Positions 29,023 through 35,609 are shown, counted from the stretch's first letter. The stretch: 60,948 nucleotides of DNA from Verrucomicrobiota bacterium (GCA_038209745.1 JBBQXJ010000018.1:1-60948); one strand, 5' to 3'. Notes: generated by a model from the sequence alone, not told the origin. Numbers and translations: made by a program.

Positions 29023-32000
29023 ATGATCGAGATCCCGAAGGCCTACGAGCCCCAGTCCGTTGAATCGAAGTGGTATGAGTTCTGGGACCAGAACGGCTGC
29101 TTCACCGCAGATCCCGCCCGCGTATCCGACGCCCGCCCGGCCTATTCCATCGTCATCCCTCCGCCCAACGTCACCGGCGTCCTCACCCTCGGCCACGTCC
29201 TGAACAACACGATCCAGGACATCCTCGCCCGGAAGGCCCGCATGGACGGCAAGGAGGTCCTCTGGCTCCCCGGCACCGACCACGCCGGCATCGCCACCCA
29301 GAACGTCGTCGAGAAGACCCTGAAGAAGGCCGGCGAAATCAAGCACCGCGACGACCTCGGCCGCGAGGCGCTCGTGGCGCGCATCTGGGAGTGGAAGGAG
29401 AAATACGGCGGCATCATCCTCAAGCAGCTTCGCGCGCTCGGCGCCTCCTGTGACTGGACCCGCACCCGCTTCACCATGGACCCGGAGTATTCCCGCTGCG
29501 TCCAGAAGGTCTTCGTCGATCTCTACAAGAAGGGCCTGATCTACCGCGGCAAACGCATGGTCAACTGGTGCCCCGGCTCGCTCACCGCGTTGTCCGACGA
29601 GGAAGTGACCATGAAGGAGCAGAAGGGCTTCATGTACTATTTCCGCGTGGAAGTGGTGGAGCTAGTGGCCCAGCCGGCCTCGGCTGTTGACCCTGCGGGC
29701 GGGGGGGGGCTCAGCACGGACCCAGGCGAGGGCGCCTGTGCCACTAGCCAAACCCTAGCCATCAAGCCCACGGGCATCTTCCTCACCATCGCCACCACCC
29801 GTCCGGAGACCATCCCGGCCGACACCGCCGTGGCGGTGAATCCCAAGGACCCACGCTACCAGCACCTCATCGGCAAACACGTCATCAAGGCGCTGCCACT
29901 GGATGTGCCGAAGGAATTGCGCGTCATCCCGATCATCGCGGATGAACACGTGGACTTCGAGTTCGGCACCGGCGTGCTGAAGGTCACGCCTGCGCACGAC
30001 AAGGCGGACTACGAGATCGGCCTGCGGCACAAGCTGCCGGTCATCGACGTGCTCACGCCGGACGGAAAGATGACGGCCGAAGCCGGCGCCGATCTGGCCG
30101 GACTGGACCGCTTCGTGGCACGCAAGAAATCGGCGGAACTGTTGGAAGCCGCCGGCGCGTTGGAAAAGGCCGAGCCCTACACGAACAACGTGGGTTTCAG
30201 CGAACGCGCCGATGTGCCCATCGAACCGCGCCTGAGCGAGCAATGGTTCCTCAAGTATCCCAGCGTGGAGGCGAGCAAGGCGTGCGTGGTCTCGGGAACG
30301 GGGAGCACAGGCGCCCCGCCTGTTGCCGACCGCGCCCTCGCGGTCGGCGCGGGAGCCGCGCAGGCGGACGGAGCATCGGTTGTCGGAGCGCGTGCCGGAG
30401 TCGAAGGCGGGGCGCCGGGGACGGCGCCCGGGGCGGGCGCGGTCCCCGGCGCGGATGCGATGCGGTTCTATCCGGATCGCTGGGCCAAGGTCTATGACCA
30501 CTGGATGGGCGGCATCCAGGACTGGTGCATCAGCCGCCAGCTCTGGTGGGGGCACCGGATTCCGGTGTGGACGTTGCCGCTACACGTCTCAGGAAATGAA
30601 GTCGCCCAGCAATTGAGAGACTATTTCAAGGAGTGGGGCATCCCAAGTGAGTATGTGTTCATTGAGGTTATCCAATCCAAACCAGACTGCGGAGATACGA
30701 TTCGCTTTCTGACGAGCAGTGATGAGGCCGACGCAGCCTCAGCGAAACTCAACAGCTTTTTTCAGTTCGGTAAGTTTGACGCTTCGCTCCACGAGGGATT
30801 CCCGACGGCGCACGCCAAAGATTTGGCGAGAGCAATAATGGATGGGCCTGCCGCACATCAGGCGACCCAAGACCCCGACGTCCTGGACACTTGGTTCAGC
30901 TCCTGGCTCTGGCCGTTCGCCACGATGGGCTGGACGGGCGACAAATCCCAAGACTCCAAGAACCCAACCCTCCAGGCGTTCTACCCCACGACCGATCTCG
31001 TCACCGGGCCGGACATCATCTTCTTCTGGGTCGCCCGCATGATCATGGCCGGCTACGAGTGGATGGGCGATCTGCCGTTCCGGAACGTCTATTTCACCGG
31101 CATCATCCGCGACAAACAGGGCCGCAAGATGTCGAAGTCGCTCGGCAACTCGCCCGACCCGCTCGATCTCATTTCCCAGTATGGCGCCGACGCGCTGCGC
31201 TTCGGCGTGATGCGCGCCGCGCCGCTCGGCCAGGACGTGCTCTTCGACGAACAGACCGTCGAACTGGGTCGCAACTTCTGCAACAAGCTCTGGAACGCCT
31301 GCCGCTTCCGCCAGATGCAGGGCGGCGCAGGCCTAGTGGCCCAGCCGCCCTCGGCTGAATTGGTAGTGGGGCAGACGCCTTCGTCTGCCTCGGTCCAACA
31401 GGCGCCCCGGCCTGTTGACCCTGAGAATGGAACAGCCGGGGGCGCCTGTGCCACTACGTCGACCGGCGACGACGTCTGCGGCGAGATCGATCCCACGCTC
31501 CTCACCTCGGACGACAAGTGGATCCTGCTCCGGCTCGACCAGGCCATCCGCGAAGTCACCCAGGCCTTCGCCGATTACAAGTTCAGCGACGCCACGGCCA
31601 CGCTCTACCGCTTCTTCTGGAGCGAGTATTGCGACTGGTATGTCGAGGCTTCGAAGGCCGCGTTCTACGGCACGGACGACACCCTCAAGGCCAACAAGCT
31701 GGCGGTGATCGACTTCGTCCTCGGCCATCTGCTGCGCGTCTTCCATCCGTTCCTGCCCTTCATCACCGAAGAGCTGTGGCACAGCATGGGATTCTCCAAG
31801 GAAATGCCCGAAAGCCAGGGCGGCAAGACCATCATGTTCGCCGCGTGGCCCAAGCCTTTCACCGACGAAGAGAAGAGCTACTTCCAGCTGGACGACGCGG
31901 CCGACACGATCGCCCAGGCGAAATACGATCTCGTGGTCCTCGCCCGCGCGCTCAAGCGCGACTGCAACATCGATCCTGCCAAGCGGGTGAAGTTCGTCGT

Positions 32001-32405: not shown

Positions 32406-32555
32406 GGTAGCGCGATCGCTCCGGCCGAGCCGTCGTTTGATCTGCTGACGACGGGACCGCAGCTCGGGCGACTCCGGAGCGTTCCGGAGTCGCCCGTGAA
32501 GCCGGCTCGGACCTCATCCGCCCCAAGGCGGCTTGGCCGGAGCCGTCGCCCTACC
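32406..32555. repeat. REPIN-like doublet (GGTAGGGCGACGGCTCCGGCC family) between valS and ileS
   Basis: Inverted arms ggtagcgcgatcgctccggccgagccg / cggcttggccggagccgtcgccctacc; the right arm matches 55946-55970 at 24 of 25 positions. Confidence 0.8.
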
Positions 32556-32624: not shown

Positions 32625-35609
32625 ATGGACTACAAGAACACGCTGAACCTTCCGCAGACCGGCTTCGCCATGAAGGCCGACCTGGTGACCCGCGAACCGC
32701 AGCGCCTCGCCCAGTGGGAGACCGCCGATCTCTACGGCCGCATCCGCGCCGCGCGCGTCGGTCGCGAGAAGTTCGTCCTGCACGACGGCCCGCCCTTCGC
32801 CAACGGCGATGTCCACGTCGGCACCGCGCTGAACAAGATCCTCAAGGACATCATCATCAAGTTCCGCACCCTGGAGGGGATGGACGCGCCCTACGTGCCT
32901 GGCTGGGACTGCCACGGCTTGCCCATCGAGTCCAAGGTCACCCAGGAACTTCGCGCCGCCGGCCACACCGATGCCGACGCGGCCACGATCCGTTCCGCCT
33001 GCGACGCCTATGCGCGCAAATACATCGATCTGCAGCGCGGCCAGTTCAAGCGCCTCGGCGTGCTGGGCGATTGGGAGAATCCCTACCTCACGCTGGACAA
33101 GACCTACGAAGCCGAGGAGCTGCGGATGTTCGCCGACATCGTGGAGAAGGGCTTCGTCTATCGCGGCAAGAAGCCGGTCTATTGGAGCATCCCGTTCAAG
33201 ACCGCGTTGGCCGAGGCCGAGGTGGAATACGCCGACCACGTCAGCCAGAGCGTCTATGTGAAGTTCCCCGTCGTCGGCACGCCCAACACCTGGGTGCTGA
33301 TCTGGACGACGACGCCGTGGACGCTGCCCGCGAACCTCGCCGTCGCCTTCAATCCGCGCCTCTTCTACTCCTGCGTCTCCGGTCCGGACGGCAGCTACTA
33401 CATGGCGAACGATCTGCTCGGAACGGTCAGCGAAAAGCTCGGCTGGTCCGCCTATCAGATCCAGCACACCGCGTCGGCCGCGGAACTGGCCGCGCTGGAA
33501 TACCGCCATCCGTTCTGCGCCCGCACCGGCCAGCTCTTCCCCGCCGACTTCGTGGAGAACAGCACCGGCACCGGCTTCGTCCACATCGCGCCCGGCCACG
33601 GCATGGACGACTACCAGCTCGGTCTGAAGGTCGGCCTGCCGGTCTATTGTCCGGTGAACGACGAAGGCAAACTCGCCCCGACCGACGATTTGCCAGCGGA
33701 TCAGCAATTGCCTGAATCGCTCGTCGGCAAATCCGTTCTTTCCAAAGGCGGCCGTTCCGATGCGAACGACGCCGTGCTGGCGTTGTTGACCGAGAAGAAC
33801 GTCCTCGCCCATCGCGAAGACTATTCCCACAGCTACCCGCACTGCTGGCGCAGCAAGACGCCGATCATCTTCCGCGCGGTCGACCAGTGGTTCATCAAGA
33901 TCGATCACGAAGTCGGATCCCCGATGCTCGATGCCGGATCTGGTATCGGGAACCAGGCATCCGGGATGACGTTCCGGCAAATGGCCCTCTCCGAGATCGA
34001 TCGGGTGAAGTGGATTCCCGACTGGGGCATCAACCGCATCAAGGGCGCCGTGCAGACGCGCCCCGATTGGTGCATCAGCCGCCAGCGCACCTGGGGCGTG
34101 CCCATCCCTGCGTTCTACGACGCGGACAAGACCCCGATCCTCAATGCCGAGATCATCCGCAACGTCGCGAAGCTGATCGAGGAACACGGTTCCAACGTAT
34201 GGTTCGCCAGCTCGTTCGAAGAACTCTGGGCCAAGGTGAAGCCCACCGATTGGACCGGTTCGATGCCTGTCTCCAAGTCGTCCGACACGCTCGACGTGTG
34301 GATTGATTCCGGCAGCTCCAGCCGCGCCGTTCTGATGAAGCGCGAGGAGTTGCAGCATCCTCCGGGCGCCGCGCCCAAGGACACCTGGCAGGCCGACGTC
34401 TACCTCGAGGGCTCCGACCAGCACCGAGGCTGGTTCCAGTCGTCGCTCTTGCTCTCGCTCGCCGGGAATGGCGCCGCGCCCTACAAGACCGTCTTGACGC
34501 ACGGCTTCATGGTGGACGAAGACCGGGAGAAGATCTCCAAGTCCAAGCAGGGGGCCGGCGGCTATCAGAAGCCCCAGACCGCCGACCGTTTCGTCAAAGA
34601 CTACGGCGCCGACGTGATCCGTCTCTGGGTCGCCTCGCAGGACTATCGCAGCGACATCGTGGTCAGCGAGGAACGGCTCAAGAAAGTCGGCGAGACCTAC
34701 CGCAACATCCGCAACTGCCTGCGCTACCAGCTCTCGAACCTCTACGACTTCAATCCAGGCGGAGCGGCCGGCTCTGGCTCTGGTAGTGGCACAGGCGCCC
34801 CCGCCTGTGACCCAGTCCGGCAGGCGCCCCCGCCTGCCGAAGCTACTGCGGGCGGACAGGCCGTTTCCGACGACCAGTTGACCGGATTGGACCGGTGGAT
34901 TCTCGGCGAGTTCGCCGTGTTGGAAGCCGACGTGAAGGCCGCCTACGACGCCTACGAATTCCACATCGTCTATCAGAAGCTCAGCCAGTTCGTCGCGGTG
35001 CAGCTCTCCTCCATCTACCACGATGTGGTGAAGGACCGGCTCTACACCGACGCCGCGAATTCCCCCCGTCGCCGCAGCACCCAGACGGCGCTGCACCGGA
35101 TCATCAGCGGCCTTTGCCAGATGCTGAGCCCGATGCTCGTCTTCACCGCCGACGAAGCCTGGGAAGCGATCCCCGGCAAGCCGACCGCCAGCGTGCACGA
35201 AAGCGAATGGACGCCCTCCGCGCCCGCCAGCACGGAAGCGACCAAGCTCGATTGGCAGACGATCTTCCGCATCCGCGAGCAGGTCCTGCCGGTGCTGGAA
35301 AAGCAGCGTCAGGCGAAGGTCATCGGCAAGTCGCTCGAAGCCGTCGTCTACCTGAACCTCGCGGCCGAGGAACAGGCCATCGGGAGCCGTTTGGCCGCCG
35401 AGCTCACGGAAATATTGAACGTTTCCGCCGTGGTCTTCGGCGCTCGGGCGGCCGGCGACGAATCCACCGATCCGATCGTCGCTCGCCACAGCCAGGAAAC
35501 CGGTCGCGTGAAGTGCGACCGCTGCTGGCATTGGGAGAACGACGTGGGCCAGAACGCGGAGCATCCGACCCTGTGCGGTCGCTGCGTCGTGGCGGTGAAG
35601 TTGAGCTGA
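32625..35609 (+). CDS. ileS: Isoleucine--tRNA ligase (type 1), with two in-frame insertions
   Basis: LHDGPPFANG, HVGT, GWDCHGLPIE, WTTTPWTLP, DWCISRQR, EGSDQHRGWF, KISKS, C-terminal CDRC..CGRC zinc finger. Confidence 0.98.
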   Translation: MDYKNTLNLPQTGFAMKADLVTREPQRLAQWETADLYGRIRAARVGREKFVLHDGPPFANGDVHVGTALNKILKDIIIKFRTLEGMDAPYVPGWDCHGLPIESKVTQELRAAGHTDADAATIRSACDAYARKYIDLQRGQFKRLGVLGDWENPYLTLDKTYEAEELRMFADIVEKGFVYRGKKPVYWSIPFKTALAEAEVEYADHVSQSVYVKFPVVGTPNTWVLIWTTTPWTLPANLAVAFNPRLFYSCVSGPDGSYYMANDLLGTVSEKLGWSAYQIQHTASAAELAALEYRHPFCARTGQLFPADFVENSTGTGFVHIAPGHGMDDYQLGLKVGLPVYCPVNDEGKLAPTDDLPADQQLPESLVGKSVLSKGGRSDANDAVLALLTEKNVLAHREDYSHSYPHCWRSKTPIIFRAVDQWFIKIDHEVGSPMLDAGSGIGNQASGMTFRQMALSEIDRVKWIPDWGINRIKGAVQTRPDWCISRQRTWGVPIPAFYDADKTPILNAEIIRNVAKLIEEHGSNVWFASSFEELWAKVKPTDWTGSMPVSKSSDTLDVWIDSGSSSRAVLMKREELQHPPGAAPKDTWQADVYLEGSDQHRGWFQSSLLLSLAGNGAAPYKTVLTHGFMVDEDREKISKSKQGAGGYQKPQTADRFVKDYGADVIRLWVASQDYRSDIVVSEERLKKVGETYRNIRNCLRYQLSNLYDFNPGGAAGSGSGSGTGAPACDPVRQAPPPAEATAGGQAVSDDQLTGLDRWILGEFAVLEADVKAAYDAYEFHIVYQKLSQFVAVQLSSIYHDVVKDRLYTDAANSPRRRSTQTALHRIISGLCQMLSPMLVFTADEAWEAIPGKPTASVHESEWTPSAPASTEATKLDWQTIFRIREQVLPVLEKQRQAKVIGKSLEAVVYLNLAAEEQAIGSRLAAELTEILNVSAVVFGARAAGDESTDPIVARHSQETGRVKCDRCWHWENDVGQNAEHPTLCGRCVVAVKLS
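34783..34847. repeat. In-frame palindromic element in ileS (GTGGCACAGGCG family)
   Basis: gtagtggcacaggcgccccc is the exact 20-nt reverse complement of 31438-31457 in valS; two caggcg-ccc-cgcctg-type hairpins. Confidence 0.9.

Follow-up and report, generated by a model that had tools for sequence, protein, structure and literature searches.

We analysed a 60,948-nucleotide (nt) stretch of DNA from a Verrucomicrobiota bacterium (GCA_038209745.1 JBBQXJ010000018.1:1-60948; hereafter the window), in which the valine--tRNA ligase gene valS carries an in-frame segment of 99 codons with low G+C (GC) content. The segment fills a connector of valyl-tRNA synthetase (ValRS) that we take to be the CP2 or second zinc-knuckle region. 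It is very probably an allele, here called F1, exchanged by homologous recombination between valS genes. Our confidence is evenly divided on the fuller explanation, driver included, in which an exchangeable accessory domain fills this surface connector in Verrucomicrobiota and Planctomycetota.

A first-pass annotation had placed 99 residues between the conserved motifs GHRIPVW and QDPDVLDTW, and the insert does lie exactly between them (Table 1). Its hand count of 138 G or C among the 270 nt of 30571-30840 was reproduced; the whole insert has a GC content of 52.9 %, and the source genome 63.3 %. The low GC at third codon positions (GC3) that it had noted inside a GC3-biased gene was likewise borne out, with 59/99 in the insert and about 0.9 on either side (34/38 immediately before it, 138/153 after it and 191/208 in the valS N-terminus). 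In a scan of 2029 high-GC3 open reading frames (ORFs) of this genome the insert ranked fifth among 22 low-GC3 internal segments, and its low GC3 therefore exceeds chance. The segment is also, as first described, non-palindromic and without intein termini: no repeat falls inside it among the 20 of 57 direct-repeat families and 25 of 42 inverted pairs listed, and it begins Thr-Leu and finishes Gln-Ala-Thr, where an intein would start with Cys or Ser and end in (His)-Asn. With no listed repeat inside and no Y1_Tnp match, it does not resemble a repetitive extragenic palindromic (REP) element, a REPIN or a RAYT. RNA folding (z = 0.26) indicated no RNA structure, Rfam and Pfam gave no match for the insert, no intein family is among the 9 families matched by the whole ValRS protein, and no second copy was found elsewhere in the genome.

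An assembly chimera, an intein or an intron is an extremely improbable origin. Metagenome mis-joins are possible at conserved motifs, at which contigs from numerous organisms accumulate. However, F1 occurs in frame at the same ValRS site in many independent assemblies, and in the public sediment run X1, possibly the source sample, one contig spans 30544-30921 with 5 differences and crosses the downstream junction; the lack of any intein or RNA family speaks against an intein or intron. Within the insert the X1 contig differs at 30792, 30812 and 30861 among the positions listed; one of these differences is silent and two exchange an amino acid for one like that of the homologues (codons read by hand).

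Loci from relatives were fetched by motif pattern, mostly from Verrucomicrobiota and including Limisphaerales and Pedosphaera records. Among 157 loci examined, 142 could be delimited, 11 were incomplete and 4 lacked the motif; removal of 4 duplicates left 138, and a plant ValRS (P0034) was excluded from clustering. The connector had been said to comprise usually a few tens of residues, and it does so in 75 of the 138 verrucomicrobial-type loci (18-44 residues, the remaining 63 being longer) and in Thermus thermophilus ValRS 1GAX (32 residues, 416-447, from alignment); a plant ValRS has 45. When 40 database proteins were included, the long inserts numbered 103 and formed 62 BLAST clusters with 47 singletons. 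In the ValRS tree this protein groups most closely with congeners and with further verrucomicrobial records. The three congeners whose slot is complete carry inserts of 89, 85 and 71 residues versus 99 here, and no significant BLAST match was obtained among these four inserts of one genus (best E value 5.5); the slot of a fourth congener runs beyond its locus and two congeners gave no valS match. Inserts of 49-125 residues have a mean GC3 of 0.53 versus 0.83 in their flanks, and since 47 of 52 sit at least 0.1 below the flanks, low GC3 characterises the slot throughout the group rather than this genome alone. The GC3 of the insert rises with that of the host (r 0.48, n 52, with kin not independent). 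None of 182 delimited inserts contained a stop codon, a count that frameshifted inserts would evade.

Some relatives house other cargo in the slot. Six of the 138 loci (L018, L021, L025, L026, L041 and L074) have inserts of about 200 residues that appear to sit within the short connector and not to replace it; the one tested of the six, from L021, matches LPD3 (PF18798, E 2.2e-14). The ValRS slot of L040 holds a 284-residue insert, RAYT-like as judged by eye, and further RAYT- or Y1_Tnp-like domains lie in frame within synthetases in L237 and L240 (AlaRS) and in P0018 and P0050, the domain being confirmed by Pfam for P0018 and taken from precomputed annotation for P0050. Genome G023 has two valS-like matches (C251:15915-16439 and C274:319-825), which could be paralogues, contamination or co-binned alleles.

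The distribution of F1 argues for exchange. In the searches run, its homologues were found solely at this ValRS site. F1 is missing from all six congeners searched, but 400 genomes of the order yielded it in two other families, one of these being a partial match at a contig end, while a relative of F1 occurs in a Planctomycetota ValRS; an F1 profile run on 400 phylum-wide genomes matched the source genome alone. Three weak F1 matches (E 5.8e-4 to 3.4e-3) were set aside for want of a valS motif. Compared with P0003, the insert is identical at 64 of 98 residues and the C-terminal part of ValRS at 148 of 269; compared with P0006, the counts are 59 of 98 and 235 of 270. On these comparisons insert identity is indifferent to backbone distance.

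Phylogenies point the same way. On backbone trees built with the slot and flanks removed (FastTree and LG+G4), F1 takes 7 state changes over 104 rows. Approximately unbiased (AU) tests rejected the six verrucomicrobial F1 carriers as one clade (p-AU 7.6e-7, on 33 rows author-chosen from the 104) and, in the other direction, two backbone clades on the insert tree (p 0.007 and 0.003, for groups named after seeing the trees). Sister genomes differ too: L052 and L099 are 95.9 % identical over 1344 backbone nt, yet their slots measure 82 and 19 residues, and L069 and L093 are 92.9 % identical over 1317 nt, yet have 52 and 91 residues, the 91-residue insert of L093 being homologous to one from another family. 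As judged from near-identical valS genes with dissimilar alleles or with the 18-44-residue connector only, allele turnover is recent. As in mosaic genes and replacement islands, dissimilar content lies between near-identical flanks and the phylogeny of the segment is incongruent with that of the flanks. The proposal of a swappable cassette between conserved flanks is thus supported by the dissimilar congener inserts, the AU tests and the sister-genome differences, and the segment, once collected from relatives, did not prove conserved across the clade. The description 'foreign' holds with respect to this valS lineage but otherwise goes too far, as the domain is found only within ValRS and its GC3 partly tracks that of the host.

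One ancestral insertion followed by fast vertical divergence and repeated deletion, with no exchange, would agree with the common ancestry suggested by a shared C-terminal motif and a weak profile match to F1 (below). This reading is highly improbable and already contradicted, however, as insert identity does not drop with backbone distance, congruence is rejected in both directions and genomes 93-96 % identical carry dissimilar alleles.

Public sequencing runs were compared with the window as assembled contigs only, and no contig listed unites near-identical flanks via another allele. The insert is covered in X1 alone, at a contig depth of 12 versus 38-44 for the flank contigs; X9 and X12 hold near-identical flanks with most of the insert uncovered, and the RNA run has no long near-identical piece. 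Because holes and contig depths prove nothing, we read the pattern in X1, X9 and X12 as a mere hint of within-species polymorphism.

Both flanks are Trp-rich motifs of the catalytic core. Codons -19 to -10 of the upstream flank show 0-3 differences per 30 nt in 18 of 18 pairs, other families included, and an exact run of at least 20 nt is shared with the window by 47 (upstream) and 27 (downstream) of 62 long-insert carriers. Such flank identity should suffice for RecA-type recombination; it is of the kind that homologous recombination calls for, and we infer the recombination step itself. Just downstream of the slot, a 6-residue indel (30939-30956 region, TGDKSQDSKN) recurs in several families and may travel with recombination tracts.

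The junctions carry a sequence signature of their own. In long-insert genes the junction codon is ATT in 50 of 59 cases (267 of 1096 elsewhere) and the first downstream codon is CAA in 49 of 61 (235 of 756 Gln codons elsewhere in the same genes). These non-preferred codons give rise to a 15-base palindrome next to the boundary, which, allowing one C/T variant, is present in 31 of 63 long-insert versus 5 of 75 short-connector genes. GATC occurs no more than 30 nt from the junctions in 7 of 63 long-insert versus 36 of 75 short-connector genes. Palindromic 4-mers are not avoided inside inserts (mean observed/expected 0.88 versus 0.85 in the core), and a 12-nt junction motif overlapping the palindrome was not significant in independent pairs.

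These features could indicate a selfish or site-specific system, a nuclease or recombinase that reads the junction palindrome and delivers cargo much as REP/RAYT units elsewhere in the genome do. The enrichment of the palindrome, the rarity of GATC, the non-preferred junction codons and the RAYT-like cargo in the valS and alaS slots of relatives would all suit such a system. We nevertheless regard it as improbable: there is no terminal repeat or target duplication among the repeats listed, no RNA structure, no second genomic copy and no enzyme fold, the tests on independent pairs were not significant, the L052/L099 pair differs in the slot though the palindrome is absent, and the insert replaces the connector rather than being added to it.

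The insert is predicted to encode a small folded domain. AlphaFold2, run with an 11-sequence alignment, gave a predicted local distance difference test (pLDDT) of 83.2 and a predicted template modelling score (pTM) of 0.76, with the order strand, helix, two strands, helix and then a helical tail; a full-length ValRS model repeats these elements at an overall pLDDT of 61.9. In VIA-align the solved folds nearest to it were alpha/beta plaits, RRM and ACT among them (best Z 5.0, rmsd 2.5, 62 aligned); Z values of 5.0 or lower fall short of what would tell kinship from a like arrangement, and so show no more than the latter. Foldseek, a check proposed at the outset, returned no match for the insert at E 0.001 or below; structure comparisons found no enzyme fold. 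The core (residues 517-580) is weakly related to other slot alleles (profile comparison probability 57 %, E 1.1e-4, 30 columns), and the F1 profile scores at least 5 bits on 12 of 78 other inserts and on 0 of 78 reversed and 0 of 78 shuffled controls. Long inserts have a C-terminal motif with L at -7 in 51, G at -3 in 54 and T at -1 in 56 of 78, and the shared terminal motif of most other long alleles is strand-helix. Owing to this motif and the weak profile match to F1, a common ancestor of most long inserts is likely. The allele pool looks like one fast-diverging domain superfamily native to ValRS of the Planctomycetes-Verrucomicrobia-Chlamydiae (PVC) superphylum.

The insert has a net charge of -6, and among 96 long inserts 92 are net negative and none positive (kin not being independent); CxxC is absent from all 96. 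The ratio of non-synonymous to synonymous change (dN/dS) within insert families is 0.11-0.22 in 6 of 12 pairs, synonymous sites being saturated in the other 6, which places the diversity between allele families and not within them. None of the six estimable pairs is F1, whose sole pair with DNA is saturated (pN 0.38, pS 0.95). By these ratios the insert families are under purifying selection.

The alleles might instead be adaptive modules that spread because they tune the enzyme itself, be it in editing, in contact with the tRNA acceptor stem, in stability or in the binding of partners. The slot is flanked by the editing domain on one side and the second half of the Rossmann fold on the other, CP2 of LeuRS reportedly has a role in activation and editing, which we count for this possibility, and the nearest folds include RRM and ACT domains. 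We find tuning distinctly improbable, however, as the fold matches signify a common arrangement only, the acidity of 92 of 96 alleles is ill suited to tRNA binding and 62 clusters exceed what kinetic tuning would need.

Searches for a donor covered phages, viral folds, metagenomes and short proteins. Viral contigs gave 22 pattern matches and 0 confirmed, 50,697 phage records held no homologue, the best PHROGs match had E 0.016 in 1 of 11 members and a viral fold library gave nothing at E 0.001 or below; the ESM Atlas returned a single row at 0.75, a lead only. Among 1.84 billion representatives there were 4 matches, three ValRS fragments and one repeat protein, the latter rejected because it scores through its 25 repeats. 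One of 763 short-protein candidates matched, itself a ValRS fragment, and a metagenome pattern scan for F1 gave one match, outside a valS frame. No homologue outside ValRS was found in these searches, whose reach is limited for a divergent 99-residue domain. Since no phage or free-standing donor was found, low GC need not imply a low-GC donor. Core genes are described as higher in GC than accessory genes (PMC5303225), and low GC3 would fit partnerless, accessory-like drifting DNA better than repeated import from one AT-rich source.

Similar segments occur in other synthetase genes of the genome. The five strongest low-GC3 internal segments of the blind ORF scan all lie in the genes for LysRS, AlaRS, ThrRS, GlyRS and ValRS, and those for IleRS and LeuRS are also among the 22 at lower ranks; synthetases make up roughly 1 % of ORF codons (12,136/1,202,808, a rough figure with two of 20 frames mis-picked). 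Within the genus the lysS slot measures 143, 131, 129, 112, 20 and 20 residues (16 of 25 loci delimited), the thrS slot 116, 91, 91, 79, 79 and 59 (18 of 23) and the alaS slot 113, 82, 225 and 234 (13 of 20), the 113-residue alaS form recurring in another family. No comparable segment was found in gyrB, secA, dnaK, recA or two fusA/lepA-family genes, and the GC3 dips seen in uvrA and dnaE resemble linkers. That an AT-rich slot like that of valS recurs in four further synthetase genes suggests a pressure on the enzyme surface, possibly from phages. Genome G001 carries two thrS copies (C75 and C45) with different 79-residue inserts, for which paralogy, contamination or the co-binning of alleles could account.

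Shuffling in a tolerant loop would need no such pressure: the slot would take almost any stable acidic domain, the flanks would admit distant DNA, drift would turn alleles over and selection would remove misfolds. ValRS manages with a short connector in 75 of 138 loci, one of them in a sister genome that shares 95.9 % identity with a carrier of a long insert, the slot also houses LPD3 and RAYT-like cargo, three REP-like inserts lie elsewhere in this valS, and PVC proteins are known for many indels (PMC3000692). We consider a merely tolerant loop unlikely, though a serious contender, for it leaves unexplained both the synthetase bias of the five strongest segments, with the six other conserved genes lacking one, and the 63 of 138 loci that keep a long insert, with synonymous sites saturated and no collapse to the short form.

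Under the exchange reading that we prefer, valS DNA from other species would enter, recombine within the Trp-rich motifs on both sides and replace the whole connector. DNA that rarely finds a homologous partner in the population would escape the forces that keep core genes GC-rich, giving low GC3. Diversity and the focus on synthetases would be maintained by frequency-dependent selection from surface-binding proteins (phage modifiers like T4 Vs, or toxins), against which the acidic domain would serve as a shield or decoy that keeps changing. We narrowly favour, by inference, such selection by binders of the synthetase surface as the driver, because conflict would explain the many coexisting alleles, their long persistence and the synthetase focus, and because a phage modifier of ValRS exists: T4 vs encodes a protein that modifies the host enzyme (PMC13716836). 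Co-folding of E. coli ValRS 1-860 with T4 Vs scored 0.03, which speaks neither for nor against this. Given exchange, a conflict driver seems to us neither more nor less probable than its absence, and a phage or toxin in that role falls slightly short of an even balance. More tentatively still, PVC bacteria may practise antigenic variation on several essential cytoplasmic synthetases, with modules drawn from a pool that crosses families and phyla, swapped through catalytic motifs and serving to evade or decoy phage modifiers or toxins.

Several observations weigh against parts of this account. We know of no binder, phage or toxin for the insert domain. The first-pass annotation had envisaged diversifying selection, but an excess of non-synonymous change within allele families was looked for in the six estimable pairs and not found. 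The flanks share a median exact run of 26 nt upstream and 17 downstream, versus 22 and 18 in two control valS motifs; being no better conserved than the controls, they lend no support to homogenisation by hitch-hiking. On 11 independent pairs the junction codon bias was not significant (median p 0.125-0.5). The low-GC stretch of glyS is a divergent, lengthened version of a domain common to relatives and not a non-homologous swap (4 of 20 loci delimited). A motif search of the scanned ORFs did not recover rpoB, rpoC, gyrA or groEL, which lie outside the check, so that a restriction to synthetases rests on one 92 %-complete genome. Finally, almost every sequence used derives from a metagenome assembly.

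The usual view of synthetases is of conserved markers whose transfer, where it occurs at all, involves the entire gene. In ValRS it is a domain within the gene that turns over, between genomes sharing over 90 % identity and across family boundaries, and in this genome the signal is concentrated in synthetases. If the antigenic-variation reading is true, the allele pools point to an undescribed class of synthetase-targeting proteins. Were conflict the driver, the role of phage ValRS modification, unassigned in PMC13716836, would be testable with a natural allele series, and the alleles would be usable as bait for antagonists. Were the turnover neutral, it would offer a natural experiment on GC loss of non-recombining DNA inside a GC-rich gene, and a caution for phylogenies built from whole synthetase genes.

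The window contains further repeats. GC-rich palindromic REP-like units lie in frame in valS at 29661-29748, about 30290-30455 and 31331-31456, and in ileS at 34770-34836; their end motif occurs 13 times in the genome. Between valS and ileS, 32406-32555 holds nested inverted repeats with 27-nt arms.

Table 1 Features of the valS slot and low-GC3 segments of four other synthetase genes
Feature	Position	Strand	Description
valS, valine--tRNA ligase, 1114 aa	29023..32367	+	Host gene of the slot; TIGR00422 889.8 bits, cut-off 612.1 (NCBIfam)
Insert	30571..30867	+	valS codons 517-615, 99 codons in frame, between GHRIPVW and QDPDVLDTW
Cassette core, ValRS 517-580	30571..30762	+	Predicted beta-alpha-beta-beta-alpha, alpha/beta-plait (ferredoxin-like, RRM/ACT-type) arrangement; AlphaFold2
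Cassette C-terminal helical extension, ValRS 581-615	30763..30867	+	Typical of family F1 and planctomycete-type alleles
Upstream conserved flank (WCISRQLWWGHRIPVW)	30523..30570	+	Presumed recombination anchor
Downstream conserved flank (QDPDVLDTWFSSWLWPFATMGW)	30868..30933	+	Presumed recombination anchor
15-nt palindrome, 1-nt centre (CACCGGA-T-TCCGGTG)	30553..30567	.	From HRIPV codon choice, 3 nt before the swap boundary
lysS low-GC3 segment	G000:C6:46395-48344		Segment is codons 339-463 of the gene at this position
alaS low-GC3 segment	G000:C3:29551-32571		Segment is codons 419-545 of the gene at this position
thrS low-GC3 segment	G000:C32:42333-44552		Segment is codons 336-421 of the gene at this position
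glyS low-GC3 segment	G000:C56:27119-29008		Segment is codons 120-218 of the gene at this position

Among known systems, penA/pbp mosaics and O-antigen-type replacement loci exemplify mosaic genes and replacement flexible genomic islands. The valS insert resembles these in its probable homologous recombination within conserved flanks, its GC below that of the core and its incongruence with the host phylogeny. It differs in that the unit is one domain inside an essential cytoplasmic translation enzyme, the alleles are non-alignable or absent and not point-variant, several synthetases of one genome are affected, and exchange spans families and probably phyla. It shares its position and variable length with the CP2 or zinc-knuckle insertions of class Ia synthetases (1GAX); known CP2 variants, however, are treated as inherited lineage traits, whereas here the connector forms an alpha/beta domain of its own, 50-120 residues long, and differs from one sister genome to another. 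Like the indel-rich PVC proteins of Kamneva et al. 2010 (PMC3000692), it is an insertion in a conserved protein of the same superphylum; the main text of that paper does not contain 'valyl', 'aminoacyl' or 'GC content', and its synthetase example is a C-terminal deletion of MetRS in Chlamydia. In-frame REP/RAYT and LPD3 cargo occupies the same slot in some relatives, and REP-like units occur at three other sites of this valS; unlike REP/RAYT elements the insert lacks palindromic ends, is AT-richer and not GC-rich, takes the place of the connector and, in the searches run, yielded homologues only within ValRS. In the E. coli system, T4 Vs (tau peptide) is an example of a phage protein that targets ValRS, and phage fitness in minimal medium depends in part on it (PMC13716836). 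No description of swappable synthetase cassettes was found in the literature searched, which included few subscription journals and no supplements. In its workings the insert is comparable to a mosaic gene, or to a replacement island reduced to a single domain, and it occupies a connector whose variability in class Ia synthetases is established.

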